From the IMG/VR virus record IMGVR_UViG_3300050821_014614: a stretch of 64,000 nucleotides of DNA. The stretch is one strand, 5' to 3'. A program made the position numbers and the translations under genes. The notes beneath the pieces were generated by a model. The model did no database searches. It saw only the letters and a list, made by a program, of their open reading frames with translations, and was not told the DNA's origin. This document shows positions 4,582 to 50,444 of the stretch, in pieces. Numbering within the stretch: the stretch's first letter is position 1; every line of letters begins with the position of its first letter. This DNA is from a virus.

Positions 4582-6123
4582 TTAGCTCGAGTAGCCCGCG
4601 AGCGATTGCGAGAACAGCGCCTGCTGCGTTACCGCCGCGGCGGCCGCCAGATCGGAAATCGTCGGCGCGGCATCGATCTCGGCATCGATGGCGGCGTAAA
4701 CTGCCGGGTTCGCGTCCTGCAGCCCGATGCGCACGAGCTTTTTCTGTATTTCCTTTGCGAAGGTGTCGGACTGAACGTTCTCGGCCTGAATAGCGCTGAG
4801 GAATTCCACGTCCTCGGCTCCGCCCTTGTCGGCGAAATCGAACCCGCGAATGTCAGCCGCTATCTCTGCATAGCCGCGGATCGTCAGCACGTCATCGAGC
4901 ACGCCCTGCATATCGGTGCGGAGGTTGTCTCCAAAGCCTTCCTGCGCGTCCTTCGAAGGCGATTTATCCTGTTCCTTCGAAATGCCGGATTGCGCCGCGG
5001 GCGTTGCCCGCCCGCTTCGCGCCTGATCGATCAGATAGCAGGATCGATAGACGTCCTCGCGCAGTTCGTGTAAACGCTCACGATGCGTCTGCATGGCCTT
5101 GCCTTCCGGCTCAAGCCATTCGGCGCGCGTTTCCTTATCGGGAAAGTGCAGCCACGAGACCTCGCTCATCGTCGGCGTGTCGTCGTAGGGTCCGAAAATC
5201 GCCAGCATGGCGAGGGCGGACTGGAAGATCTGCCAGTCGAGCGCGTTCTCCATATTCAGGTGCTTCAGCAGCGGCAGCATGACGCGATCGCCGAACCACA
5301 TGCCCTCCGGCGCATCGCAGCGCCGCAATGGCACGCGCTGGTGATCGCTCAGCGCGTGGCGCCGCGGATAGCCCGCGACGAGGGCCGCGTTCTCTTCTTT
5401 TGCTGCCGCGCCCGGGCCAGCCTCAAATAAAACTTCGTATGCTGCTACCTGATCGGGCGTGTAGATATACCAGCAAACACGCACCTGGGTTTCGCCCAGA
5501 AGGGCAGCCTCGAACGTTTGCACCTTCAATACCACCCAGATCACATTGCCGTAATCATCCGTTTTCCAGTTGAGAACGCAGGTCGGGTCATAAGTCAGAA
5601 TGACCGGATCGAGAGCGCCCGCAGCTTCCTGTTGTGCCAGCGATCCATACTGCGCGCCGGCGGAATCGGGAAGATCGATCAGCAGCCACGACCTGCCGAA
5701 AACGATCTGGTGCGCCAATACCTGCCGCCACTTATCGGCATAGGCGCCACCGTGGTGATCGCAGTCGAGCTCCCACTGGGCGATCCACGCAGCCGTGTCG
5801 GCGGGCACGGCATCCTGCGCCGCTTTGATGTCCGCGATTGCGCTGACCCGGGTCAGGATATCCGGCTCACGCGCGAACATCGACGAAACGTACCAGCCGG
5901 CGATATTGCCAAGCAGGTTCGAATAGTTGAAGTTCTCCTGGCGCGACGCGAAGACGTCGGCATGCTCTTTTACCCGACGCATGAGAACCTCGCCACAGTT
6001 CTCCTTCAAGACCGAACCGCCACCATAGAGCAGGCCCAGCTTTCGCCAGGCACCCTTGTAGAGGCTATATTCGGGGTGCTCGGCATCGAGCGCCTTAATC
6101 GGAACTGCAGCTGGAAAGTCCAT
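4582..6123 (-). CDS. portal protein
   Basis: 513 aa ORF between large terminase and scaffold genes; call based on position and size. Confidence 0.7.
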   Translation of the reverse strand: MDFPAAVPIKALDAEHPEYSLYKGAWRKLGLLYGGGSVLKENCGEVLMRRVKEHADVFASRQENFNYSNLLGNIAGWYVSSMFAREPDILTRVSAIADIKAAQDAVPADTAAWIAQWELDCDHHGGAYADKWRQVLAHQIVFGRSWLLIDLPDSAGAQYGSLAQQEAAGALDPVILTYDPTCVLNWKTDDYGNVIWVVLKVQTFEAALLGETQVRVCWYIYTPDQVAAYEVLFEAGPGAAAKEENAALVAGYPRRHALSDHQRVPLRRCDAPEGMWFGDRVMLPLLKHLNMENALDWQIFQSALAMLAIFGPYDDTPTMSEVSWLHFPDKETRAEWLEPEGKAMQTHRERLHELREDVYRSCYLIDQARSGRATPAAQSGISKEQDKSPSKDAQEGFGDNLRTDMQGVLDDVLTIRGYAEIAADIRGFDFADKGGAEDVEFLSAIQAENVQSDTFAKEIQKKLVRIGLQDANPAVYAAIDAEIDAAPTISDLAAAAAVTQQALFSQSLAGYSS

Positions 6124-9748: not shown

Positions 9749-10501
9749 TCAGGTGAGGGCGATCAGCGCGAGCGCTTCCGGCATCTTCGCGATTCCAGGC
9801 CCGTACGATGCCGGAAGCGAATGCTCGAAATGCGCGTCGAGCGCCTGGCCGACGCTGATGGCGTTCAGCCATCCGTCAAAAACCGCCGTCATGCCAGCGT
9901 GGATGAACTGCGGACGGGGTGGACAATGCGTAACGATGTCCTTCGTATTGGAAACTCGCACCAGGGTGATCTTCGCGTCGCAATGCGTCTTCCACGCCAC
10001 ATCGCCGACCCGCGGGCTGGCGAACACGATGCAGGTGACGGGCAGGGAAGTCCCGCCCGCGATACTCGCGGCCGCAAGGGTTGCGGCGGCAGCGCCCAGC
10101 GAATGGCCGATTACGCAGAATTGCGTGCCAGCGCGCGTGTCCGCGATCGCGGAACGGATCGAAGGCAAGAGCGCTTCGAGCAGGCGCTGAAAACCGGCGT
10201 GTACTTTAAACCCGCCGACGTCCTCAAGTACCGATTCGAAATCGTCGATCCATTCGTCCGGCGTTTCCGTGCCGCGGATCGCGATATAAACCACGTTGCC
10301 CGCGGTGGCCACGAAACCGAAGTAGGGGTTGTCCGGCGAGATCTTGCCGAGAGGGCGGTCAAGTTGAATTGACCGGATTGAAGCGTAACCTGCGGGCAGC
10401 GCCGGCGTTTCGGAAACCACGGTATACGCCGCCTCGGCCAGCGGCAGCGCTACTTCAAGCAGGAACGCTTTGTCGATCAGCATTTGTAATCGCGAATCCA
10501 C
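9749..10501 (-). CDS. class 3 lipase-like alpha/beta hydrolase
   Basis: 250 aa; nucleophile elbow VIGHSLGAAAATLAA (GxSxG). Confidence 0.75.
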   Translation of the reverse strand: MDSRLQMLIDKAFLLEVALPLAEAAYTVVSETPALPAGYASIRSIQLDRPLGKISPDNPYFGFVATAGNVVYIAIRGTETPDEWIDDFESVLEDVGGFKVHAGFQRLLEALLPSIRSAIADTRAGTQFCVIGHSLGAAAATLAAASIAGGTSLPVTCIVFASPRVGDVAWKTHCDAKITLVRVSNTKDIVTHCPPRPQFIHAGMTAVFDGWLNAISVGQALDAHFEHSLPASYGPGIAKMPEALALIALT

Positions 10502-11294: not shown

Positions 11295-11467
11295 TCTTTT
11301 CGGTCGCCAACAGACTCGCGGAGCGCAAGCGCTACATGGCCCACATCCCGCCAGGTCGCCCTGATCTCGGGCGGAAGGTTTTTCCACGACGGGTAAACGT
11401 TTTGATCGCCCAGCCGCGATCTCAGCCACGTACGGAAGAGCTGCTCCGCGAACGCATCGCTGGTCAC
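11291..11467 (-). CDS. small protein, paralog of ORF 12438-12692
   Basis: 58 aa from GTG 11467 (GTGA overlap with sigma stop); shares an F.E.L...SR...P.W..P..RA.WR...AL.L pattern with the 84-aa ORF. Confidence 0.5.
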   Translation of the reverse strand: MTSDAFAEQLFRTWLRSRLGDQNVYPSWKNLPPEIRATWRDVGHVALALRESVGDRKE

Positions 11468-11994
11468 GCGGCAGCCCGCATAACCCTGAGCGCTCTGGCC
11501 TCGATCTGGCTTGCGCGGCATTCACTTACGCCAAAGGAGAGTCCGACTGCCTTCAACGTTTCTCCGCGCATGCGCCGGCGAACCAGTTCGCAATCGCGAT
11601 CCTTGAGGCCGCCCATGAGAGTCTCGACATCGAGCGCGGCTTCCATCGCGGGCCATGGATCCACGGCGGGGCCTTTGTTCACGCGAAGCTCGAGGTCTCC
11701 ATTTTTACGTCTGTACCCGGCATCGATAGATACCATCGCCCCATAGGCGAATCCCACACGGCGGTTACCGGTTTCCTGCCTGAGGGCATCCAGCGCCGCG
11801 AATCTCATTCGGCTGTGGACCCGGGCCTCTTCCGAACCCAGACCGTTCCAACTTCGAAAAGCGGGTATAGAGGCCATCAGAGCCTCCTGTTTCAGATCGT
11901 CGACAGGAATTCTGAAGCCCGTGATGCGGGAGATCCGCCAGGCAATACTTTGTGCGCGGCCCGCGTACTTCGCGACAATCTCGTCATCCGTCAT
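11464..11994 (-). CDS. sigma-70 family sigma factor (small, ECF/group-4-like)
   Basis: 176 aa; region-2-like DDLKQEALMASIPAFRSW and region-4.2-like LSFGVSECRASQIEARALRVMR. Confidence 0.75.
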   Translation of the reverse strand: MTDDEIVAKYAGRAQSIAWRISRITGFRIPVDDLKQEALMASIPAFRSWNGLGSEEARVHSRMRFAALDALRQETGNRRVGFAYGAMVSIDAGYRRKNGDLELRVNKGPAVDPWPAMEAALDVETLMGGLKDRDCELVRRRMRGETLKAVGLSFGVSECRASQIEARALRVMRAAA

Positions 11995-12760: not shown

Positions 12761-12930
12761 TTGTGCAGCCCGTCGCGGCCCGTGGCGCCTGTCGCACCCA
12801 CGGCACCGGTGGCTCCTGTCGTTTTCGCCGCCTTCGCTTCGAGCTTCCGGACCCGGTGTTCGAGGACCGCACCGCAGAGCAGAAGCGCCATCACCGCGAC
12901 GCACAGCACCACCGTCATCGGGTCTGTCAT
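12757..12930 (-). CDS. 57-aa membrane micro-protein with short collagen-like tail (below track threshold)
   Basis: MTDPMTVVLCVAVMALLLCGAVLEHRVRKLEAKAAKTTGATGAVGATGATGRDGLHK; ATGA overlaps at both ends. Confidence 0.45.
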   Translation of the reverse strand: MTDPMTVVLCVAVMALLLCGAVLEHRVRKLEAKAAKTTGATGAVGATGATGRDGLHK

Positions 12931-13541
12931 TTCTTCGCCTTTGGCGCGTCCGCTTTCTTCACGTCCGCCGCTTCGATCTCAACCGGAGTATCGCGGCCGA
13001 ACATGGGCAACATTAAAGTGAGGAGCGTGCCGCCTTTGATTCGGGCGATCACGGCGGAGCGCCCCGCGAACGATCCGGATTTCACCGTGACCGAAGCACC
13101 TACCACATAAGGGCAGCATGCGTCGGGAACGGTTGACTCGATCACTTGTCGCAGGTCCGCGATTTCGCAATCAGGAATCGAAACGGGAATCTGGTCGATA
13201 CTCAAAATCGTTACAACGCCGCGCGCCCGGCTGATCGATGGCGCATCGGCCGGATCGAACCGCGCAAAGATATAGCCCGGGAACAAGGGCCGCGTCGTGA
13301 CCTTCTCACGATCGCTCCACTTCACGCGTTCATCCCAGGTCGGGAGAAATTCCTCGACGCCTTCGCCGCGGAGCTGGTCACGAACCGAAAATTCGAAACG
13401 CGATCTGGTCTGGATAGCGAACCAGGAAGGTGAAGCCGCTACGCGGGCGTCCGGGGAGAACGCAGACCTCTGCAGCGCGGGCGAAACGACGGGAATCTGA
13501 TGCACTACGTGCCCTTGAGTCCCGGATTCCACCTGGTGCAT
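12927..13541 (-). CDS. NusG/RfaH-family transcription antiterminator paralog (NGN + KOW)
   Basis: WFAIQTRSRFEFSVRDQLRGEGVEEFLPTW...PLFPGYIFARF (NGN-like) and GASVTVKSGSFAGRSAVIARIKG (KOW-like); start set to ATG 13541, the track TTG 13598 lies inside the promoter-like motif. Confidence 0.8.
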   Translation of the reverse strand: MHQVESGTQGHVVHQIPVVSPALQRSAFSPDARVAASPSWFAIQTRSRFEFSVRDQLRGEGVEEFLPTWDERVKWSDREKVTTRPLFPGYIFARFDPADAPSISRARGVVTILSIDQIPVSIPDCEIADLRQVIESTVPDACCPYVVGASVTVKSGSFAGRSAVIARIKGGTLLTLMLPMFGRDTPVEIEAADVKKADAPKAKK

Positions 13542-13570
13542 TTGAAGTTGCGTAACGGCCTCACGAGCCC

Positions 13571-13610
13571 TATCGGCGCGCGCCGGAAAAACGTGCAAAC
13601 GCGAATTTAG
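13571..13610 (-). promoter_or_regulatory. conserved motif copy A (TTGCAC-17 nt-CGATAG), promoter-like
   Basis: Minus-strand reading CTAAATTCGCGTTTGCACGTTTTTCCGGCGCGCGCCGATA; similar to copies at 14007-14050 and 50401-50444. Confidence 0.55.
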
Positions 13611-14006: not shown

Positions 14007-14050
14007 GCTAATCGGCGCGCGCGGGGGAAACGTGCAAACGGGCGGTTTAG
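14007..14050 (-). promoter_or_regulatory. conserved motif copy B (TTGCAC-17 nt-CGATTA), promoter-like
   Basis: CTAAACCGCCCGTTTGCACGTTTCCCCCGCGCGCGCCGATTAGC on the minus strand, in the divergent gap between late and early blocks. Confidence 0.55.
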
Positions 14051-22275: not shown

Positions 22276-22371
22276 AGCGCCTATTTTTCTGTCGACGCGT
22301 GAGCTCCCGCGGGCACTGGCTGAAATTTGCCAAGCCGCAGCGGCCGGGTGAAACAGACGAAAGGCAAGGAA

Positions 22372-22605
22372 ATGAAGCACAGGCGCGCGATACCCTGGCA
22401 CGTAGAGTTGCGGACGCTTCTTCTGACGCCGCTCACAGGCAAAGAGATCGCGTTCCAGATGGGAATTACGCTCGGCACTTTGAAGGTCTACGCGGGCAGG
22501 CTCTATAGAACGCTCGGGGTGCACAACCGCATTGAGCTGATGGCCGGCGAGATCGACCGGATGAAAGCGTCAAATAGTCCTCTCCCGCTGGCTACCGGCC
22601 GGTAA
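22372..22605 (+). CDS. LuxR/GerE-type HTH regulator (HTH-only)
   Basis: Trimmed to ATG 22372 (AAGGA SD); LTGKEIAFQMGITLGTLKVYAGRLYRTLGVHNRIEL. Confidence 0.65.
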   Translation: MKHRRAIPWHVELRTLLLTPLTGKEIAFQMGITLGTLKVYAGRLYRTLGVHNRIELMAGEIDRMKASNSPLPLATGR

Positions 22606-22792: not shown

Positions 22793-23422
22793 GTGGCGTC
22801 AGTGACGCATTACATGGGCCGCGTTGCTGATCACAGCCCGGCTCTGGTGATGACGGACCTTTCGAGCGCACAATGTACGCATGCGCATTGGTATCGAGAT
22901 GGCTGGCGGGACGGAAGGCAGAAGCTGCGATGTACGCGCTGCCGGATGGGTACGATCGTCGGAGTGCGACCCAGCCGGTTAGTGAAGCTTTCCATTCTCG
23001 GCCCGAATTATGTGGCCGGTTTGAGTATCAAACAGGCGATGAAAAAGACCGGCTATACCTACGGGTGCGTACAGCGAATCTATATACTGCTCCGCGCCAG
23101 AGCTAGCGTGCTTTGTCCATGCGGGCGGTCGGCAAGTCACAGCGGCCGATGCAGGGCGCGGCGGGAGAAGGAAGTGAAACGCGAAACACCCTGGCACGTG
23201 GAATTGCATGCCCTGCTACTCACAGACCTGAGTGGCAAACACATCGCTCGCGCGATGGGTATTACCTATGGCACGCTCCACAGTTATACGAATCAGCTTT
23301 ACCAGAAATTAAACGTGCATGATCGCGTGGACCTTATGTCGCGAGAAATCGAAAGACTGAAGGTTGCCGCTTCGCGTGCGAGTCCGGTGGATAAAAAATG
23401 GGACAACGATGACCAGCACTGA
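22793..23422 (+). CDS. LuxR-type HTH regulator with N-terminal zinc-ribbon/HTH extension
   Basis: C-terminal 65 aa paralogous to ORF 22372-22605 (TPWHVELHALLLTDLSGKHIARAMGITYGTLHSY...); N-terminal C..H...C..C motif. Confidence 0.6.
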   Translation: MASVTHYMGRVADHSPALVMTDLSSAQCTHAHWYRDGWRDGRQKLRCTRCRMGTIVGVRPSRLVKLSILGPNYVAGLSIKQAMKKTGYTYGCVQRIYILLRARASVLCPCGRSASHSGRCRARREKEVKRETPWHVELHALLLTDLSGKHIARAMGITYGTLHSYTNQLYQKLNVHDRVDLMSREIERLKVAASRASPVDKKWDNDDQH

Positions 23423-23616
23423 AGCGTATAAAGCCGGCATCGGCCCGACTACTCCATTACCTGAACTTTGCGGCCCTTCCTTTAGCGTCGCGCCATTCGA
23501 AGTTTCCTGTGCTTCGGCCGCGCGTCTGCGCGCCTCGATTCAAGCCGCGGCGTGATATTTCTGTGCGCGGTCACAAACCTGAAAAAGCTGTCTGCGAATT
23601 TAAGTATCATCTGGTC

Positions 23617-24672
23617 TCACGCCGCTTTCTTCGCCGGCGCCGCCGGCGTTCCGCGTTCGTAGCTCGTCACGGTGCGCGATCCGGTTTGCGCCACCGATGT
23701 AACGCTGGCCGCCACGTCCGCCGAAACGTGCTCGGCAAGATCCTTCAGTGTCGTCTGCGCAAATGTGCCGAACAGTTTGACTCCCACTTTTTTAATTAAG
23801 GCCGGGATATCGAAGCTGCTGACATTACTGCGCGGTCCGATCAGCACGGTGAAGCGATCGCCCGACGCTTCGAAGCCTCTGGTTGCATCGGCATCGTCGT
23901 AGAGCTCGCGCGCCCATTTGCGAAGATTCGTCTGCCGGGTGAGTTTCGATTTCAGTGGCGCGAAAAACTGGTCTAATTCGCCCAGCTCGTCGAGGTTCTT
24001 TCTGCGATCCGCCTCGAGCGCTGCAGCCGCGGATGTGGGGATAACTTTACTGGATTTGGGCACACCGCTATATCGGCGCGGCGCCTGCGAACCGTGCACG
24101 CCGGTGCGGAACCGCAACTCCGCGATCGCTTCGCTGTGCCGCTCTGCGACCCATCGCAGGGAATGGCCCATCGCCTTGGCGATCGCCGGCATCGTCATTT
24201 CGGCCGAACCGTAGCGCATCGATAGAATGCGCCGCTGATCGGCCGATAACCAGGTTGTGGCCGCAATCGTTTTCAGGAGTTGCTCACGGGTGTGCGCGTC
24301 CCGTTCCTGGTTGGCCACTGTCGGCGCACAGGCTACGCCAGGCGCGTCGTCTTCGTTTTCGCCGGTACTGAGCGGAAGACACGTGCCGGCGGTGTAGTGG
24401 CGCCCGGTGACAGCGTCCAGCATGGCGCCGCGGATCCGCTTACGGGCGAAACACACGAACGGCACGGGTTTCGGGAAGCCAGAGCGCTGGTGCGCGGCCG
24501 GGTTATATTGCGTGGCGGCGCGGAGCAGACCGATCACGCCTTCCTGTACGAGATCCTCGACCGGAAACGAAGGCGGCAGGGTTCGGCTCAGACCGCGGGC
24601 GATATGCCGGATCAGGGGCAGGTGCGCGTCCACAAGTTCGGTGTGGCACAATGTATTGTTTTTCACTGCCAT
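23617..24672 (-). CDS. sigma-70 family sigma factor (group-3/FliA-like) fused to a roughly 170-aa C-terminal domain of unknown function
   Basis: Region 2 EDLVQEGVIGLLRAATQYNP..FARKRIRGAMLDAV, region 4 LSADQRRILSMRY..TMPAIAKAMGHSLRWVAERHSEAIAELR; trimmed to ATG 24672. Confidence 0.7.
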   Translation of the reverse strand: MAVKNNTLCHTELVDAHLPLIRHIARGLSRTLPPSFPVEDLVQEGVIGLLRAATQYNPAAHQRSGFPKPVPFVCFARKRIRGAMLDAVTGRHYTAGTCLPLSTGENEDDAPGVACAPTVANQERDAHTREQLLKTIAATTWLSADQRRILSMRYGSAEMTMPAIAKAMGHSLRWVAERHSEAIAELRFRTGVHGSQAPRRYSGVPKSSKVIPTSAAAALEADRRKNLDELGELDQFFAPLKSKLTRQTNLRKWARELYDDADATRGFEASGDRFTVLIGPRSNVSSFDIPALIKKVGVKLFGTFAQTTLKDLAEHVSADVAASVTSVAQTGSRTVTSYERGTPAAPAKKAA

Positions 24673-24676
24673 ACTG

Positions 24677-25024
24677 ATGAACGAGATGATCGTACCGCGA
24701 AAAAAGGCCGTGCCCGCACACTGTAACCCCCGAGTGACAGGCCGCAACGGAGTGTCGCAGACGGTGGCGCGGACCATCCTCGTGTGGCTGGAGCGTATCG
24801 GGAAGAATCAGACCTGGCTTGCCGAAGAGTCAGGCTTGTCGCGCAAACGCGTAAACGAGATCGCCGCCGGACGGCAGAGTGAGATCCACGCCAGCACCCT
24901 TTTCCGGCTGGCGCTGGCACTTAAGCTCACGCCGAACGTGTTGTACGGGTACGCGCATCCGGATTATGTTGTGCACCCGAAGTTCACGCCAGGAGCGGCC
25001 CGGGTTTTTCACGGGCTGGTGTAG
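24677..25024 (+). CDS. XRE/Cro-CI family HTH regulator
   Basis: QTWLAEESGLSRKRVNEIAAGRQSEIHASTLFRLALAL. Start uncertain: ATG 24677 is only 5 nt from the divergent sigma start, and GTG 24752 is possible. Confidence 0.65.
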   Translation: MNEMIVPRKKAVPAHCNPRVTGRNGVSQTVARTILVWLERIGKNQTWLAEESGLSRKRVNEIAAGRQSEIHASTLFRLALALKLTPNVLYGYAHPDYVVHPKFTPGAARVFHGLV

Positions 25025-25025
25025 G

Positions 25026-25077
25026 ACAAACTCCGATTTCGGGGTTTGTGACGGTCACAAACTCGGTTCGGGTTTGC
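25026..25077. promoter_or_regulatory. nested palindromes built from ACAAAC/GTTTGT half-sites (operator-like)
   Basis: ACAAAC 25026, GTTTGT 25044, perfect 19-bp palindrome GTTTGTGAC-G-GTCACAAAC at 25044-25062, GTTTGC 25072. Confidence 0.5.
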
Positions 25078-25472
25078 GGCGGTTTTTCCCCGCCTGCGGT
25101 CGCAGCCGCCTCGTTCGGATCAGGCGCGGGAGGGTCGGAACGGCATCACGCCCATTTATAGGACGGGTTTTGCCCGGAGCTGGCACGTTGCCTGTCCATG
25201 ACTTAAAGAGTTCGGACGCGTAGCGGCCGTTCCTTTGGTTTTTAATTCAGAGCTGGATCTAAAACTGGTGGTCTGAGCGAAGCGATATCAATTCCGGAAG
25301 CGGAGCGACGCTTGCGGCGCGACTTCCTTAAATTCTGTCTCTTCTGTGAGAAACACCCACCCACCCGCAGGCCAGGGGGAGGGAGTCTTGAGCTTCAGAA
25401 TCTTCAATAAGGTATGTCGCCGCTAAGTAGTAGCTGTACTTCGTTTTCTGGCGTCTGCACTTCGCCAAAAGC

Positions 25473-25509
25473 GAACTGTAGTTCCGCGCAGTTCTGGAAC
25501 TGGAGTTCC
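25473..25509. promoter_or_regulatory. two GAACT-NN-AGTTCC palindromes with an extra half-site
   Basis: GAACTGTAGTTCC at 25473-25485 and GGAACTGGAGTTCC at 25496-25509, with AGTTC at 25490. Confidence 0.4.
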
Positions 25510-25561
25510 GCACTCAACGCAACACGGCTTTGCGCGTCGAAAGATTTGCGAGCGATCCGGA

Positions 25562-26902
25562 CTACTGAGGGTCGGCGGCCGGCAGAGGGGCCTCCACGAA
25601 ACGGACGTGCTCGATCCCGCGCTGGAGCGCGCGTGCGGTGTTATCGATCAGAGGCTGGAATTCATCTTCGAGGAAGATGATTGTTCCCTGGTCGGGGACC
25701 GCCACGATCAGTTGCGTGCCCTCCATGCCGATCTGTCGCGAACGGAGGATCCAGTTGTGATATCGCTCGTCGCTGAGCTGCGACTTTATCGCCCGCCGGA
25801 CGGCGCCCCAGTGCCCCTGATCGCAGTCCGACTCCGCGAAGAATAAGGCCATCGCCTTTTCGGTCGCTCGCCGGGCTTCCTGGAACTGGGTTTCTCTGGC
25901 TTCCTGCTCCTCTGCCGCGGCAAGGGCGGCCGCCTTGGCGGCCCATGCGGTTCGGACCGCTTCCTCGCGCCAGTCGCGGCCGCAATCGCGTGCCAGATCC
26001 TTTACCAGACCTGACTCCTTATAGACGCCCTTCCGGATCTTTTCCCGCACCCGCTCGGCGAGCATTTCCGCCGGCGCGCCATCAGAAAGCGCGACAACTT
26101 CGCCCAAAAGGCCGTCATCTGGCAGTTTACCGAATAGTTTCAGGAAGATAGGGTCTAGAACCGCGTGGAATGAGGCGAATAAAGGGCGAACCGTAGCGAA
26201 GTGAGTTCCGGTTTTTATGCTTTCTTTAGCTAAAACGCTGCCCTCTGGAATGGCTGGACCACGGTCGCGAGCGACCACGGAAACGACGTTGTTTTTGTCG
26301 ACCTCCCACGTGAACGCGACGGGCGCCGATGCCTCGCTGACTGCTCTGACAGACACCGCTGCCGGATCGATGCCCTTCAGCAGTCCGTCGATTAATGGGA
26401 TCGGCGTATCGCTCAGCGTGAAGCGGCCGGACTCATCGCGAGGGACGTGGTTCGGCACCGGCGACGGGTTGCCGCCGCGGTCATAGCGCGCTACGGATTT
26501 CAGATCTTCCGGAACGATCTTGCAGAGCCAGTGACGGCCCTCTTTTTTTCGGCGGAATAGTTGCCGGCCTTCCTTCTCGTTCGTCCCCTCGTTCAGTGCC
26601 AGTTCAAACGCCTTCGCCGTATAGTTGGCCCGCTTCGCCAATGGGCCGAATTTGATGAGCGCCCACTCGTGCACGCCGCGCTCGCGGCCGAACGTCCAGC
26701 GGACAATTTCCTGAGCCAGAATGGATTGCACGTGGCCCGAAAATTTATCGTGGTGCTCGAGCAAAAGATTGGGCGACGGCGACCAGCCTCCGACCTCGGC
26801 GAAGCGGTCGGTCGGCTTCATGGCCTCCAGTTCCGCTATGCGCTCGGGCGTCAGCGGCGGCGGTAACTTCTTTTCCTTTGTGGCACCGGTCCCCGCGCTC
26901 AC
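25562..26902 (-). CDS. candidate replication initiator/organiser with a DnaA-N-terminal-like C-terminal segment
   Basis: Start set to GTG 26902 (GTGA overlap); C-terminal ...YHNWILRSRQIGMEGTQLIVAVPDQGTIIFLEDEFQPLI... resembles DnaA domain I (from memory). Confidence 0.45.
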   Translation of the reverse strand: MSAGTGATKEKKLPPPLTPERIAELEAMKPTDRFAEVGGWSPSPNLLLEHHDKFSGHVQSILAQEIVRWTFGRERGVHEWALIKFGPLAKRANYTAKAFELALNEGTNEKEGRQLFRRKKEGRHWLCKIVPEDLKSVARYDRGGNPSPVPNHVPRDESGRFTLSDTPIPLIDGLLKGIDPAAVSVRAVSEASAPVAFTWEVDKNNVVSVVARDRGPAIPEGSVLAKESIKTGTHFATVRPLFASFHAVLDPIFLKLFGKLPDDGLLGEVVALSDGAPAEMLAERVREKIRKGVYKESGLVKDLARDCGRDWREEAVRTAWAAKAAALAAAEEQEARETQFQEARRATEKAMALFFAESDCDQGHWGAVRRAIKSQLSDERYHNWILRSRQIGMEGTQLIVAVPDQGTIIFLEDEFQPLIDNTARALQRGIEHVRFVEAPLPAADPQ

Positions 26903-27156
26903 GCCGTCGCCTTTCGCCTGCGCAGGTTCCGCAGCCGGAACCATTCGCGCTGGTGCGCCAAGCGGCATTTCTCGCAGCGCGTCCGCGGGTTGCCCGCCTG
27001 GGTATCGAAGATCTCACCGCACGCCACGGCTTTTCCTTTGGCGGTATAGCCCCCGCACTGCACGCGGTTTGCGGGCCACGCGAACCCGCCACGCCCCACG
27101 GGTGCATAGCGCGCCAGATAACCGGCTGGATGAGGATCGCGATACCGCAGCTTCAT
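26899..27156 (-). CDS. small basic Cys-containing protein
   Basis: 85 aa; coupled by 4-nt overlaps on both sides. Confidence 0.5.
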   Translation of the reverse strand: MKLRYRDPHPAGYLARYAPVGRGGFAWPANRVQCGGYTAKGKAVACGEIFDTQAGNPRTRCEKCRLAHQREWFRLRNLRRRKATA

Positions 27157-29900: not shown

Positions 29901-30025
29901 ATAGCGGCTATGATACTCCTGGCCCAAACACGAAATCAAGGGCCATTTGTAAGTTAACAAACGAGTTAGCATCTATATGCTAGCGATTATCCTTTATTTA
30001 ACAGGGGCTCTGTGCAATCCCGCCC

Positions 30026-31000: not shown

Positions 31001-31087
31001 ACCACCAAAGTACTGCTTTTCCTGGGGTTGCGTTCAAAAATATTTATGGTTTCGCCTTCCATTCACCGCGCACCGAAAAACACCACG

Positions 31088-32008
31088 ATGATGACGACGA
31101 TCGATTCCGGCCGGGATTCCGGCTTAAGTAAGGCGGTCGAGGACTACCTCGCTTCGCTCGAGCGCCGCGACGAATCACCGCACACGATAAGAAACTACGG
31201 CGCGGATCTTCGGGAGTTCGCGGTCTATTTTTCGGCAGACGGAATCGCGCCGGCCGACTTCGATCTGCACTCGCTTCGCGGCTGGCTCACCCATCTCGGC
31301 ACGCGCGGGCTGCAGGCAGCCACGATCCGCCGCAGGGTAGCGTCTCTGCGCGGCTTCTTCCGTTTTCTTTCGCGGGAACGGCGGATCCCGTCCGATCCCG
31401 CGCGGCTGCTGCGATCGCCCAAAATAGCCGCGCCGCTGCCCCACGTTCCATCCTGCGAAACGACGAATGCTCTGGTGGACACGGTCGGCGCAGACGGTCC
31501 TGACCGCCCGCATCCGAGGAGGGACCGCCTGCTGTTTGAGATTCTCTATGGTTGCGGCCTGCGCATCAGTGAAGCGGTGGGGCTGAATATGGATGATATC
31601 GACCAGACCGAACGCTGGCTGCATGTCAGAGGCAAAGGAAAAAAGGAACGGCCGGTGCCGTATGGCTCGAAGGCCGCAGGCGCGCTCATCGTATATCTGG
31701 CGGAGAGGGCACCGGCGGACGAGTCCCGCGCGTTGTTTCTGAATCACCGCGGCCGGCGGATAACGGACCGTGGCGCGCGCAACATCGTCAAGTTCTACGC
31801 GACCTTCGGAGCAGGTGACGCATCAATACATCCGCATACGTTGCGCCACGCGTTCGCCACAGATCTGCTGAATAGCGGCGCCGATCTCAGGGCGATACAG
31901 GAACTGCTGGGCCACCGAAGCCTGTCCACTACTAACAGATACACGCGCGTTTCGCTGTCGGATCTGATGCGGGTCTATGATCGGGCGCATCCGAAAGGGA
32001 ACGGTTAG
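31088..32008 (+). CDS. tyrosine recombinase, XerC/XerD-like
   Basis: N-terminal SAM-like core-binding domain; catalytic motifs GLRISEA, HPHTLRHAFAT, LLGHRSLSTTNRYT; trimmed to ATG 31088. Confidence 0.85.
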   Translation: MMTTIDSGRDSGLSKAVEDYLASLERRDESPHTIRNYGADLREFAVYFSADGIAPADFDLHSLRGWLTHLGTRGLQAATIRRRVASLRGFFRFLSRERRIPSDPARLLRSPKIAAPLPHVPSCETTNALVDTVGADGPDRPHPRRDRLLFEILYGCGLRISEAVGLNMDDIDQTERWLHVRGKGKKERPVPYGSKAAGALIVYLAERAPADESRALFLNHRGRRITDRGARNIVKFYATFGAGDASIHPHTLRHAFATDLLNSGADLRAIQELLGHRSLSTTNRYTRVSLSDLMRVYDRAHPKGNG

Positions 32009-36263: not shown

Positions 36264-36339
36264 ATGATTTCCTGCCTTCGGCCGATATACTCGTTTGGAT
36301 GCGAATTCAACCTTACTCCTGGATAAAGAGGACACCCAA

Positions 36340-37068
36340 ATGAAAAACATTGGCAGAAAAGCGCGATTTCGGGCCCCAATTCAACCGTCTGTAGAGACTG
36401 TAGAATTCGCGGCCGAAACGCCGAAACCTAAGAAAAAGGCATTCAAACGAACAGAGCTCGATGAGAATATGTACCTTCAGCCGGAGGAAACGCGGGCTTT
36501 CTTTGAGGCGGTCGAGAGCAGGCGAGACCGCGCCATCTTCAGGGTTCTGTATCACTACGGTCTGCGCGCGCACGAAGTCGGCGTGCTCCAGATAAGCGAT
36601 TACAAAGACCGTGATGGCATGCTCTACATCCGGAGGGGGAAGGGAAGCGTCTCGCGCGACCACCGGCTGATACCGGAGGCGCTGAAGGCCCTGCGCAGCT
36701 ACATCAAGTTCGACCGGGGAACGCAGCCCGGTCCGCTGTTCCAGTCACGCAAGAATCACACGGCGCGTATTCCGCGATCGGTGCAGGAGTTGGATCTGGC
36801 CGCGCGGCGGGGACGCCTCGGCATCAGCAGGTTTATGATCTTCCGGCTGATGCGCCAGTATTGTAAGGCTGCAGGCATCCCTCCGGAGAAAGCGCACCCG
36901 CACGCCTGGAAGCATACGTGTGGAACGTCGATGGCGGACCGTGGCAATGATACCGATGCGATTCAGGACTGGCTCGGACATCGCGACTCCAAGAGCACTG
37001 AAATCTATAAGCACTTCAGCAGGTCGCGCCGCGATGAGTCAGTGGAGAAGAATCGGGACTGGAGTTAA
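36340..37068 (+). CDS. tyrosine recombinase/integrase, short form
   Basis: Catalytic-domain motifs HYGLRAHEV, HPHAWKHTCGT, WLGHRDSKSTEIY; trimmed to ATG 36340. Confidence 0.75.
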   Translation: MKNIGRKARFRAPIQPSVETVEFAAETPKPKKKAFKRTELDENMYLQPEETRAFFEAVESRRDRAIFRVLYHYGLRAHEVGVLQISDYKDRDGMLYIRRGKGSVSRDHRLIPEALKALRSYIKFDRGTQPGPLFQSRKNHTARIPRSVQELDLAARRGRLGISRFMIFRLMRQYCKAAGIPPEKAHPHAWKHTCGTSMADRGNDTDAIQDWLGHRDSKSTEIYKHFSRSRRDESVEKNRDWS

Positions 37069-40490: not shown

Positions 40491-40651
40491 TCGCCGCTCC
40501 TATCGGCCGGCTGTTCGCGTTTTGCGAACTTCGGCGGGGTCGGGATGCCGAGGCGCTGCTCGATCGTTGCGAGGCGCGCGGCTATTGCGCGCCCCTCGTA
40601 TTTGATCTTCATCGCGAGGTTGAAGATCTGCTTGCGGAGTTCTTCGCTCAT
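40487..40651 (-). CDS. 54-aa hypothetical protein (below track threshold)
   Basis: ATG 40651 to TGA 40487, ATGA overlaps at both ends; MSEELRKQIFNLAMKIKYEGR... Confidence 0.45.
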   Translation of the reverse strand: MSEELRKQIFNLAMKIKYEGRAIAARLATIEQRLGIPTPPKFAKREQPADRSGE

Positions 40652-41409
40652 GATCTGGACAGCCTTTCGCCCTGGACCAACCTGCAGCCGGGTACGGCCG
40701 CGGGATCCAGCTTGAGGGCCAGCTTAATCGCGGTGTTATCCGGAATCGGAAGCGGATGAGGCGGAGGCGGCGGTTCCGGCGTGCGCCAAAACTGTATCGG
40801 GATCCCGTCTTCGTCGTCGATGACGAGTTTGGCGGGATTCAGCTTCATCGATATCGCGGACGTATGACCTTCGAGCTTCTTGCCGCCGCTCCGTCTGATC
40901 GCCATGAGCAGGTACGATTCGAGATTCTCTTTCTGCTTTGCCAAACTCAACGCGCGCTTTGTGCATCGAGCAGCTTCCGCCTGAGCAAGAACGATCGACG
41001 ATTCATATTGCGAGAGCACCCAGCAGCTGCCGTCGATCTTCGCTTTCGTTCCGCTGACCGATTCGGTCAGCATCGCGGCCAGCTCTTCGCGGGCCTCGCC
41101 GTCTAGGTCTGCGTCGTCAAGGCCGGCCAGCGTTTCGTAGATCGCCTGCGTGTCTTCGAGGCGATCGATCAGCGAGCGCTTCGGAACGAGCGCAAGCGCC
41201 GGAGGCGCGGGCGCCTCCGCAACCGGCTCCAGTTTGTAAGTCGGAATGAAAGATGGATCCCCCTCGTGCCAATCTACCGGCGGCGCGAGCGTGATCCCGT
41301 TCGAGGGACCGCCTTCGGTCCCCCATTCGATCGGATCGGACGCGTACGCGTCGAGAAGATCCGGCGCGGACTCGAGAATCGCGAGAACCGCGGAGGCGGG
41401 GCGCTTCAT
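40648..41409 (-). CDS. Siphovirus Gp157-like protein
   Basis: Trimmed to ATG 41409; the coiled-coil middle and the C-terminal ...IPIQFWRTPEPP...PDNTAIKLALK...VPGCRLVQGERL recall the Gp157 family (from memory). Confidence 0.5.
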   Translation of the reverse strand: MKRPASAVLAILESAPDLLDAYASDPIEWGTEGGPSNGITLAPPVDWHEGDPSFIPTYKLEPVAEAPAPPALALVPKRSLIDRLEDTQAIYETLAGLDDADLDGEAREELAAMLTESVSGTKAKIDGSCWVLSQYESSIVLAQAEAARCTKRALSLAKQKENLESYLLMAIRRSGGKKLEGHTSAISMKLNPAKLVIDDEDGIPIQFWRTPEPPPPPHPLPIPDNTAIKLALKLDPAAVPGCRLVQGERLSRS

Positions 41410-42005
41410 CGCGCACCGCCGTTTCGGCAGGCGTCGATGTAGATCGAGAGGCCGATTGCTCTGACCGACTCCTCGGAGAAGGTGAGGCCGATACCGCGGC
41501 GCGTGGCGTAGGCCTGCGTTTCGATGATGGCGTCGACCGCGGAACACATCGCGGCCATCATGCAGCTGGCTGCGCCGCTGAGCTTTCGGGTCTGTTCGGG
41601 TGCCGGCGGCGGTGGCGGGGTAGTACCATTGCCGTTGCGTGATGTCGCGCTTTGAGCAGCCGATGTTGTAGTTTGCGCAATGGCGGGCGGCGTTGTTTCA
41701 GCAACGCTGCCTGCCCCAATTAAGTTCACCTGAATGGTGGCCTTGGCCTTCCCCATCTGCGTTATCTCAAACATCTGGTCCGCCTGGATTCGCAGGCCGT
41801 ATATCGTGTCCGCGACGATCTGCGGAACGTACCAGGGACGTCCGTTCCCGAGATCGAAAACAACCTCGCTCGGGCCGAACTCAGAGGCCACTAACCTGCC
41901 CGGCAGCGCTGTGATCGAGATCTGGTAAGTTACCCCGATCTGCGGCGTGAACTTCGGCGGGCGCGGTGGCCGTCCGTTTTGTGGCGCGTAATTTTGTGTG
42001 CTCAT
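41406..42005 (-). CDS. hypothetical protein
   Basis: 199 aa; first gene after the conserved leader copy 1. Confidence 0.55.
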   Translation of the reverse strand: MSTQNYAPQNGRPPRPPKFTPQIGVTYQISITALPGRLVASEFGPSEVVFDLGNGRPWYVPQIVADTIYGLRIQADQMFEITQMGKAKATIQVNLIGAGSVAETTPPAIAQTTTSAAQSATSRNGNGTTPPPPPAPEQTRKLSGAASCMMAAMCSAVDAIIETQAYATRRGIGLTFSEESVRAIGLSIYIDACRNGGAR

Positions 42006-50400: not shown

Positions 50401-50444
50401 GCTAATCGGCGCGCAGGCGGGAAACGTGCAAAGGGCCCGGTTAG
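50401..50444 (-). promoter_or_regulatory. conserved motif copy C (TTGCAC-17 nt-CGATTA), promoter-like
   Basis: CTAACCGGGCCCTTTGCACGTTTCCCGCCTGCGCGCCGATTAGC on the minus strand, between the spike gene and the exported-protein operon. Confidence 0.55.

Follow-up and report, generated by a model that had tools for sequence, protein, structure and literature searches.

The DNA analysed here is a 64,000-nucleotide (nt) stretch of viral origin, IMG/VR record IMGVR_UViG_3300050821_014614, referred to below in its whole length as the window. On its minus strand, at 23617-24672, lies a gene of 351 codons plus a stop that encodes a sigma factor continued in frame by a second, folded domain. The gene callers agree on its start, and the N-terminus, MAVKNNT, is common to homologues of the fusion. 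Back-to-back with it, on the plus strand, is a gene for an XRE-family regulator (24686-25024), and directly beyond the stop codon of the latter stands a nest of palindromes (25026-25077). The subject of this report is the fusion gene, the family to which its C-terminal domain belongs and the promoters that appear to serve both.

A first-pass annotation of this DNA had proposed a phage sigma of the group-3/FliA-like type in which regions 2 and 4 can be seen, and both regions were recovered by profile searches with scores above the Pfam gathering thresholds. Region 2 (amino acids (aa) 13-89; 24406-24636, minus strand) matched Sigma70_r2 (PF04542; E 1.5e-10, 41.2 bits against a cut-off of 24) and contains the motifs DLVQEGxIGL and RIRGAMLD, which are invariant in the homologue alignment. 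Region 4 (aa 142-187; 24112-24249, minus strand), the helix-turn-helix that recognises the -35 element, matched Sigma70_r4 (PF04545; E 5.9e-6, 26.1 bits against 24.1), and the AlphaFold2 (AF2) model places helices at aa 144-190 with a predicted local distance difference test score (pLDDT) of 81-91. The NCBIfam superfamily model TIGR02937 spans aa 12-187 with 58.4 bits, above its cut-off of 42.9, so that the N-terminal part passes with all three sigma-70 profiles. The assignment to the FliA group was only half right. The closest PDB matches of the fusion protein are indeed FliA chains, via region 2 (E 6.7e-11), but the FliA/WhiG model TIGR02479 covered only aa 13-87 and scored 62.3 bits, far under its cut-off of 189.6. 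A Pfam scan of the 351-aa protein gave no Sigma70_r3 match for region 3, and the spacer between regions 2 and 4 is about 50 aa long and mostly disordered in the model, compared with about 75 aa in FliA proteins. Since regions 2 and 4 and the superfamily model are all matched and region 3 is absent, the protein is, judged by its sequence, a genuine member of the sigma-70 family with the minimal two-region build of extracytoplasmic function (ECF) sigma factors and a FliA-like region 2. When 185,579 species genomes were scanned, the only matches were to region 2 of cellular FliA proteins, and neither the fusion nor the host was found among them.

After the sigma regions, about 150-160 aa continue in frame, and the Pfam scan recognised no family beyond aa 190. 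Could the join be an artefact, that is, a sequencing frameshift or a chimeric assembly of two genes? We consider this practically inconceivable and have ruled it out: the DNA from 23400 to 25600 has 0 mismatches to three other assemblies from other samples (L001-L003), making four independent assemblies that are identical here, and the fused reading frame is conserved in homologues. Six of these (P0002-P0007), with 54-78% identity, have the same two-part build, as does a distant second lineage (P0021, P0022 and P0025, with the truncated P0023) whose sigma part is only about 35-45% identical to that of the first. The fused build is kept open and in frame in 10 sequences and two deep lineages, drawn from many samples and assemblers. 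The first-pass annotation had named a frameshift between two genes as what would overturn its reading; there is no frameshift, although the suspicion of a separate gene was right to the extent that the domain is usually free-standing and probably also made alone at this locus. Among the six homologues the C-terminal domain is the best-conserved part in five, with 83-91% identity in the five closest and 47% in the most divergent (P0007), whereas the sigma regions are 59-86% and the linker 26-74% identical in the same comparison. The linker (aa 191-214; 24031-24102, minus strand) is variable and of low complexity, is modelled with low confidence (pLDDT <50) and holds the embedded promoter described below.

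The fold of the C-terminal domain (aa 218-343; 23644-24021, minus strand) was delimited by a local HMM match and by the AF2 model. A word-index search with the C-terminal 152 aa returned nothing and missed even known homologues, and an exhaustive profile search of 1.84 billion representatives was used instead. This recovered 597 relatives at E<=1e-3 and 216 at E<=1e-10, nearly all of them free-standing proteins of 120-160 aa. By this measure the domain is a member of a large, unannotated phage protein family of about 135 aa with 597 cluster representatives. Neither the domain nor 65 sampled family members matched anything in Pfam, PHROG or NCBIfam, and the domain likewise had no match in PADLOC or among PDB sequence profiles; literature searches found no description of the fusion or of the family. 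The view that the extension belongs to no family that can be named is therefore borne out as far as curated libraries go, but it does not describe an orphan: the family is widespread, normally free-standing and associated with sigma genes.

Fold prediction and remote homology search, the checks suggested at first pass for these residues, gave a confident model and many relatives, but no counterpart in the PDB. The AF2 model, built from a 65-sequence alignment (pLDDT 92.4), consists of a 45-residue N-terminal helix, a three-stranded sheet, four short helices and a terminal beta-hairpin. Foldseek found no solved analogue in the PDB (best E 1.9); in BFVD it found uncharacterised phage proteins together with weak matches to actinophage RecB-like/PD-(D/E)XK proteins (TM 0.40-0.42). 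Within the family G127 and R129 are invariant and D24, E25, G27, P35, R42, L46, R51 and G67 nearly so, and the conserved features comprise a DELG motif on the long helix, several arginines and a TGxR hairpin. The helical part gave weak, non-significant profile matches to HRDC domains (BLM, RecQ; E 0.6-1). We rejected a PD-(D/E)XK nuclease, since the strands bear no acidic/Lys motif and there is no catalytic motif, which leaves a loose topological echo at most. An end-binding protein of the Mu Gam/Ku type, suggested by the pattern of the sequence, was also rejected: hhalign against Mu Gam (AF083977) gave a probability of 0.4%, and neither Gam nor Ku was among the Foldseek matches.

The protein ends in the tail PAKKAA-COOH (23620-23637, minus strand), and an Ala-Ala end is a general trait of these proteins. 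All ten fusions terminate in K/H-A-A, and 68 of 167 family members (41%) have an Ala-Ala C-terminus, against 2.4% expected from composition, usually preceded by basic residues (KKAA, RKRAA). ClpX recognises C-terminal tails such as ...LAA of ssrA and ...RRKKAI of MuA. The enrichment of the Ala-Ala tail and its likeness to these signals suggest, by analogy, that the -KKAA-COOH tail may place the protein under proteolytic control by a ClpXP-type protease.

If the domain belongs functionally with a sigma factor, the free-standing copies might be expected to lie near sigma genes. The nearest stand-alone relative of the sigma part, P0008, is encoded in L098, in an operon in which this sigma gene is followed by a 52-aa gene and then by a stand-alone domain gene (E 1.3e-33). 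In L014/L015 the domain gene has as its divergent neighbour a gene for a 159-aa sigma of the same type. Seven more metagenomic loci were inspected, and a same-strand sigma-family gene was present within about 2 kb in all five with usable flanks, either directly upstream of the domain gene (L101, L106 and L107) or as a sigma-like gene at most 2 kb from it (L102 and L105). The order sigma then domain is shared by L098, L101, L106 and L107. Altogether a sigma gene stands beside the stand-alone domain gene in seven of the ten contexts with enough flank; being encoded next to its sigma is a trait of anti-sigma factors. Together with the two fused lineages, this neighbourhood is strong comparative evidence for a functional link between domain and sigma, the nature of which it does not specify.

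Two further observations concern the surroundings of stand-alone copies. In L101 a 30-nt element that includes the palindrome CCTTATCACCGGATAAG occurs twice between the sigma and domain genes (5760-5930), and the two copies look like operators. Lipase genes (Lipase_3, GDSL) occur near stand-alone domain copies in unrelated contigs (L009 1641-2348; L016 10377-11720), and in the window a class-3 lipase gene (9749-10501, minus strand) lies inside the late operon.

A recurrent promoter-like motif, GTTTGCACG-N14/15-GCCGAT(T/A)(A/T), is found on the coding strand upstream of the late genes. Searched for as TGCAC-N12-18-CCGATWW it has three matches in the window, against 0.13 expected, plus a variant at 13600, and the -10-like GCCGAT(T/A)(A/T) occurs at four sites. 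Two copies on the minus strand, P1 (GTTTGCACG-N14-GCCGATTA; 14009-14039, with TTG at position 7) and P2 (GTTTGCACG-N14-GCCGATAG; 13570-13600), precede the head operon, which encodes an RfaH/UpxY-like antiterminator, a second sigma-like protein, the terminases, the portal and the major head protein. The tail-fibre genes are preceded by a third intergenic copy (50403-50433, minus strand), and in L004, L006 and L007 the motif recurs after the sigma gene. The sigma-28 -10 consensus, GCCGATAA, resembles the phage -10 element GCCGATTA; the upstream element GTTTGCACG, at 14-15 nt, differs from TAAAGTTT at 11 nt in FliA promoters (TAAAGTTT-N11-GCCGATAA). We infer that these late promoters would be read by the sigma factor described here, whose region 2 is closest to FliA.

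The late operon itself contains two more genes of regulatory type. Its second gene (12927-13541, minus strand) is an RfaH/UpxY-type NusG paralogue (NCBIfam UpxY, E 2e-25; phrog_6386), and several late promoters have a conserved GTGTG(A/C)CCAAACC just 3' of the -10 element, which might be a loading site for this paralogue. The second sigma-like gene (11464-11994, minus strand; 176 aa) matches Sigma70_r4 (E 6e-7), with TIGR02937 below its cut-off; in L006, L098, L101 and L105 a second sigma gene is likewise found 1-2 kb after the domain gene. A second sigma-like gene in this position suggests a sigma cascade.

A further copy of the late-type promoter lies within the fusion gene. It reads TGCACG-N14-GCGCCGATAT (24070-24098, minus strand; general form of the late promoter, TGCACG-N14-GCCGATWW), counts among the three window matches to TGCAC-N12-18-CCGATWW and is written into linker codons (..GVHGSQAPRRYS..). 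The element is also present in the linkers of L004, L006 and L007, despite differing residues (RRYS, RRLA, NRLE). In all four lineages its CCGAT(T/A)(A/T) part uses CGA for Arg, and in both lineages with Leu it uses TTA, codons that account for only 6-10% of Arg and 2-4% of Leu codons in these phages. The distant fusion L099 has GGCGACTA-N6-GTG at the equivalent place, and a peptide signature, RR(L/Y)xVVPxK, runs through the linkers of all fusions, distant ones included. Because the element is maintained through rare codons and across differing residues, this signature is best read as the footprint of a DNA element. The linker did not stand out in a scan of third-position conservation along the gene, which is accounted for by the protein-guided alignment, in which the register of the motif is lost.

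Seven nt past the embedded -10 element is a conserved GTG (V204; 24061-24063, minus strand). The first transcribed nucleotide (+1) is expected 7-8 nt after a -10 element that ends at -7, and the GTG is accordingly predicted to be both +1 and a leaderless start codon. The same geometry recurs elsewhere: of 10 promoter copies, 8 have a start codon 7-8 nt past the -10 element that opens a reading frame of 131-1181 aa, and two such starts are independent metagenome gene calls (L004 7189 and L007 7158). In the stand-alone domain genes of L105, L106 and L107, GCCGACTA or GACGACTA is followed by GTG at position 7-8. From V204 a nested in-frame reading frame (23617-24063, minus strand) would give the free C-terminal domain as a 148-aa protein (VPKSSKVIP...PAKKAA), akin in size and N-terminus to the stand-alone members (MPKPAP.., MKPAKAP..). 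Since the next gene is convergent, a transcript from the internal promoter can encode only the domain. One frame thus probably yields both a tethered and a free form of the domain, the latter predicted to be leaderless.

The divergent gene encodes an XRE-family protein with a helix-turn-helix of the HTH_3 family (PF01381; E 2.5e-5, 24.7 bits against a cut-off of 23). Its length differs among callers of open reading frames, 115 aa from 24677 here and 76-82 aa in relatives. The 27 codons upstream of the helix-turn-helix align without gaps in four lineages, share a Met and show an excess of third-position substitutions in all six pairs (e.g. 8/6/18). From these features we place the start at the conserved Met at 24686, which on this comparative evidence is the start of a 112-aa protein. 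A shorter version beginning at GTG 24764, which would leave an intergenic region of about 90 nt, was rejected, the upstream 27 codons being conserved without insertions or deletions.

With this start the divergent start codons are separated by 13 bp (24673-24685), and by 12-13 bp in L004 and L007 too. The back-to-back arrangement described at first pass is confirmed, but its spacing of 5 nt between the two ATGs needs correction: the ATG then used, at 24677, is 4 nt away and the conserved start is 13 bp away. The conclusion drawn from it nevertheless survives, because with start codons 13 bp apart both promoters must fall within the codons of the other gene. A scan for sigma-70-type promoters around the divergent starts recognised none. 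Within the 5' codons of the XRE gene, 50-67 nt upstream of the sigma ATG, is the dyad TGTAAC-N6-GTGACA (24722-24739). L004 has an 18-bp dyad at the same position (TGTAGC-N6-GCTACA), and L006 and L007 have looser ones; the dyad is a candidate operator, with the proviso that the codons there are conserved too. The window has just two inverted repeats of the form TGTNAC-N0-12-GTNACA, this dyad included, and they both flank the XRE gene.

The sequences show how the domains are arranged, that the fusion is conserved, that the promoter family has a copy embedded in the gene, how the start codons are placed and that sigma genes are neighbours. These findings can be brought together in a model to which we give about even chances: the locus would be a late-transcription switch in which one reading frame gives two products, a sigma factor and a feedback regulator coupled to it. 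The first product would be the compact sigma of regions 2 and 4, with its FliA-like region 2, joined through a flexible linker of about 25 aa to the 130-aa domain. The second would be the 148-aa domain alone, transcribed from the late promoter copy in the linker codons and initiated at the leaderless GUG of V204. The sigma would read the GTTTGCACG-N14-GCCGATTA promoters of the packaging/head operon and of the tail-fibre genes, and that in its own gene. Because one of the late promoters lies inside the sigma gene, sigma activity would raise the amount of free domain. The domain would be the cognate regulator of the sigma, tethered in the fusion and added in trans, and the resulting feedback would be akin to that of FliA/FlgM or of ECF sigma factors with regulatory C-terminal extensions. 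The basic -KKAA-COOH tail would expose the protein to turnover by a ClpXP-type protease, and the abutting XRE gene, with the conserved dyad in its 5' codons, would probably gate the sigma promoter. In a more elaborate version, which we think improbable, the tethered domain keeps the sigma inactive until a ClpXP-type protease degrades the domain up to the linker; the freed sigma then fires the embedded promoter, and free domain re-inhibits it or competes for the protease. If that were true, proteolysis would drive a self-contained generator of late-transcription pulses, resting on a fold without a solved relative.

Several points weigh against a switch of this kind. The domain has no likeness to any known anti-sigma or sigma-binding protein in Pfam, NCBIfam, PHROG, PADLOC, PDB profiles or Foldseek, and the full-length AF2 model shows no confident contact between the two parts (predicted TM score 0.28). 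Some of the late promoters could be read by the second sigma-like protein instead. In L010, where the domain gene follows the portal gene, and in L013 and L016/17 there is no sigma gene within 6-8 kb; from these three stand-alone contexts it appears that the domain can work without a phage sigma. Some bacteria initiate only inefficiently at a leaderless GUG. Finally, we infer all that leads from the promoter-like motif to a product: the sigma by which the promoters are read, the point at which transcription starts, that the short protein is made, that it touches the sigma and with what sign, and that it is proteolysed.

The same observations can be read in another way, with the domain as the first gene of the sigma regulon, a late or middle protein with a job of its own on DNA, in host transcription or in assembly. 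Its place after the sigma gene would be dictated solely by its sigma-dependent, leaderless promoter, and the fusion would be a tolerated by-product of gene packing after loss of a stop codon. This we regard as rather unlikely, though it comes next in our estimation. It accounts well for the finding that every examined stand-alone copy with an upstream sigma has its own -10-like element with the start codon at +1, and for the three contexts without a nearby sigma, one of them inside a lambda-like head module. The internal promoter, too, implies that the free form matters, and the RecB-like/PD-(D/E)XK structural matches and weak HRDC-like profiles hint at a role with nucleic acids. However, a mere by-product would not be expected to stay in frame in ten sequences and two lineages while the linker diverges freely; promoter placement does not explain the divergent arrangement in L014/15, and an -AA tail suits an unstable regulator better than a structural protein. 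A positive role is also conceivable, in which the domain is a co-factor or tether that helps the two-region sigma to bind core RNA polymerase, DNA or a host hub, and free domain boosts late transcription. The linkage to sigma genes speaks for this as much as for a feedback switch; the high conservation of the domain is what binding to a conserved host partner would produce, and the long N-terminal helix of the model would suit dimerisation. Moreover, accessory proteins of phage sigma factors have precedents in T4 gp33/gp45 with gp55 and SPO1 gp33 with gp34. The domain, however, resembles neither gp33, nor clamp-binding motifs, nor any RNA polymerase-binding protein, region 4 is intact and creates no obvious need for substitute -35 recognition or flap binding, and stand-alone copies occur without a phage sigma. 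We hold such a co-factor to be unlikely, more so than a domain with its own job.

The palindrome nest beyond the XRE gene had been described as an operator array. The palindromes themselves are there and are not random: a perfect 19-mer, GTTTGTGACGGTCACAAAC (25044-25062), is flanked by ACAAAC...GTTTGT dyads, and three ACAAAC/GTTTGT hexamers within 60 nt have p ~0.002, given 18 sites per 64 kb. Their reading as operators for the XRE protein or another phage helix-turn-helix protein, which with the dyad at 24722-24739 and a 9-mer at 23570 would bracket or loop the sigma/XRE module, is possible, but we would put it somewhat below an even chance. For it speak the perfect symmetry of the 19-mer, the clustering of the hexamers, the fact that both TGTNAC...GTNACA repeats of the window flank the XRE gene, and the distribution of GTCACAAAC, of which all three exact copies in 64 kb flank the sigma/XRE pair, the third (23570-23578, plus strand) about 40 nt past the sigma stop. 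On the other hand, the half-site spacings are unequal (12, 7 and 9 nt, and 6 versus 1), which a single dimeric binder would not accept, and the site is downstream of a gene rather than at a promoter region. The nest is also an insertion peculiar to this phage; L004 has nothing there, and L006 and L007 have canonical intrinsic terminator hairpins at the same place. As RNA it folds strongly (minimum free energy -39.8 kcal/mol; z -3.2 on both strands), and the plus-strand RNA forms two strong hairpins, the second of which runs into UUUUU, as a terminator of the XRE transcript would. A simple terminator scanner made no call at the nest. The unequal spacings, the position, the restriction to this phage and the hairpins tell against the operator array, and we rate termination of the XRE transcript as no less probable, if anything somewhat more so.

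Beyond the nest, in the interval from the XRE stop to where the early operon ends (25562), some 120 nt of non-coding DNA (25090-25210) are strongly conserved among four lineages with unalignable flanks and follow the consensus CTCTTTAAGTC...GGGCAAAA..TTCC.ATAAAT.GGGCGTGATCCCGTTCGCGCCC...CTGCGACCG. RNAalifold found no covariation that would indicate RNA structure in this block, and it may be a DNA element, e.g. the promoter or operator of a transcript that runs into the sigma gene. An AT-rich region at 29940-29995 carries the palindromes TTTGTAAGTTAACAAA and TAGCATCTATATGCTA and has the half-site TTTGT/ACAAA in common with the nest. It is flanked by the early operon and by a leftward 158-aa gene next to the integrase, and probably serves as the main immunity switch.

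From its gene content, the window is a temperate phage: it encodes the small and large terminase, a portal, a major head protein, collagen-like tail fibres, two integrases and a Mu Gam-like protein. A related IMG/VR genome is 67,455 bp long, and the locus belongs to a temperate soil phage of about 66 kb, from a group that possibly infects Acidobacteria. Rfam and tRNA scans of the window gave no matches. The two tyrosine recombinase/integrase genes of this one genome are at 31028-32008 and 36295-37068 (both plus strand). The Mu Gam-like protein (299 aa; 40648-41547, minus strand) has a genuine end-protection domain in its C-terminal half (phrog_253, E 3e-19). Two genes with GerE/LuxR-type helix-turn-helix domains (22327-22605 and 22793-23422, plus strand) run convergently towards the 3' end of the sigma gene; for the second of them the callers place the start differently, giving 82, 158 or 209 aa in identical DNA. 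On the other side, the last gene of the early operon (25562-26968, minus strand) encodes a 460-aa protein with a weak C-terminal match to a DnaA N-terminal-like domain (E 0.0026), and L006, L013 and L016 have proteins of 447-481 aa at the equivalent place, a likeness of size and position.

How does this locus compare with known systems? Phage sigma factors and sigma factors with regulatory extensions are already known (PMC7826278). The statement of the first-pass annotation that sigma factors with C-terminal extensions are rare does not hold for ECF sigma factors, of which 19 groups carry them (PMC7826278). Those described include SnoaL-like domains in ECF41, ECF56, ECF294 and ECF295, TPR in ECF42 and DUF1835 in ECF264, besides Cys-rich and transmembrane extensions (Casas-Pastor et al, 2021; PMC7826278), and their supposed role is to modulate the attached sigma, replacing a separate anti-sigma factor (PMC7826278). 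As here, these proteins join a minimal sigma of regions 2 and 4 through a linker to a folded C-terminal domain of more than 100 aa. Unlike them, the present extension matches none of their domains nor any Pfam family, is attached to a FliA-like region 2 in a viral element, and is also widespread as a separate gene. It further differs in its predicted embedded promoter and start codon; we know of no report of either for those ECF groups.

The FliA (sigma-28)/FlgM pair offers the nearest sequence relative of region 2 and a -10 element like that of the phage. In that system flgM is transcribed from a class 3 promoter, i.e. a promoter of the class of its own sigma, and the same relation is predicted here for the partner gene. 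The present protein nevertheless departs from FliA in its missing region 3, its low score with the FliA/WhiG model (62 against 189.6 bits) and the other -35 element (GTTTGCACG) and spacing, and its domain is a folded alpha/beta structure with no likeness to the disordered FlgM; an inhibitory action of the domain is putative. The T4 gp55/gp33/gp45 and SPO1 gp34/gp33 systems likewise couple a phage sigma for late genes genetically to a small accessory protein. They share no sequence or fold similarity with the present pair, whose partners are fused, and here there is no sign of coupling to a clamp or to replication.

What appears new is the partner family, its fold and, as a prediction, the design in which a promoter in the linker gives two products. 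The locus adds a sigma-partner family named in no database, with about 600 cluster representatives and a confident model without PDB analogue, that fusion and gene neighbourhood alike tie to sigma genes. For an uncultured phage group a defined promoter consensus is now available, and annotation gains a caution: rare codons in a 'linker' can mark the footprint of a promoter. If the model is correct, it would provide a compact system for late-gene timing in temperate soil phages and suggest a new way of timing. Nested genes in which an internal in-frame start gives a shorter C-terminal product, as predicted here, are familiar from lambda C/Nu3, T7 4A/4B and phiX174 A/A*. Those, however, use internal ribosome binding sites on the same mRNA, whereas the prediction here is of a separate promoter within the reading frame plus a leaderless GUG, with a sigma factor as the longer product. 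To our knowledge, no gene has been described before in which linker codons hold a promoter belonging to the sigma's own class together with a leaderless start, such that one frame can serve for both the tethered and the free partner.

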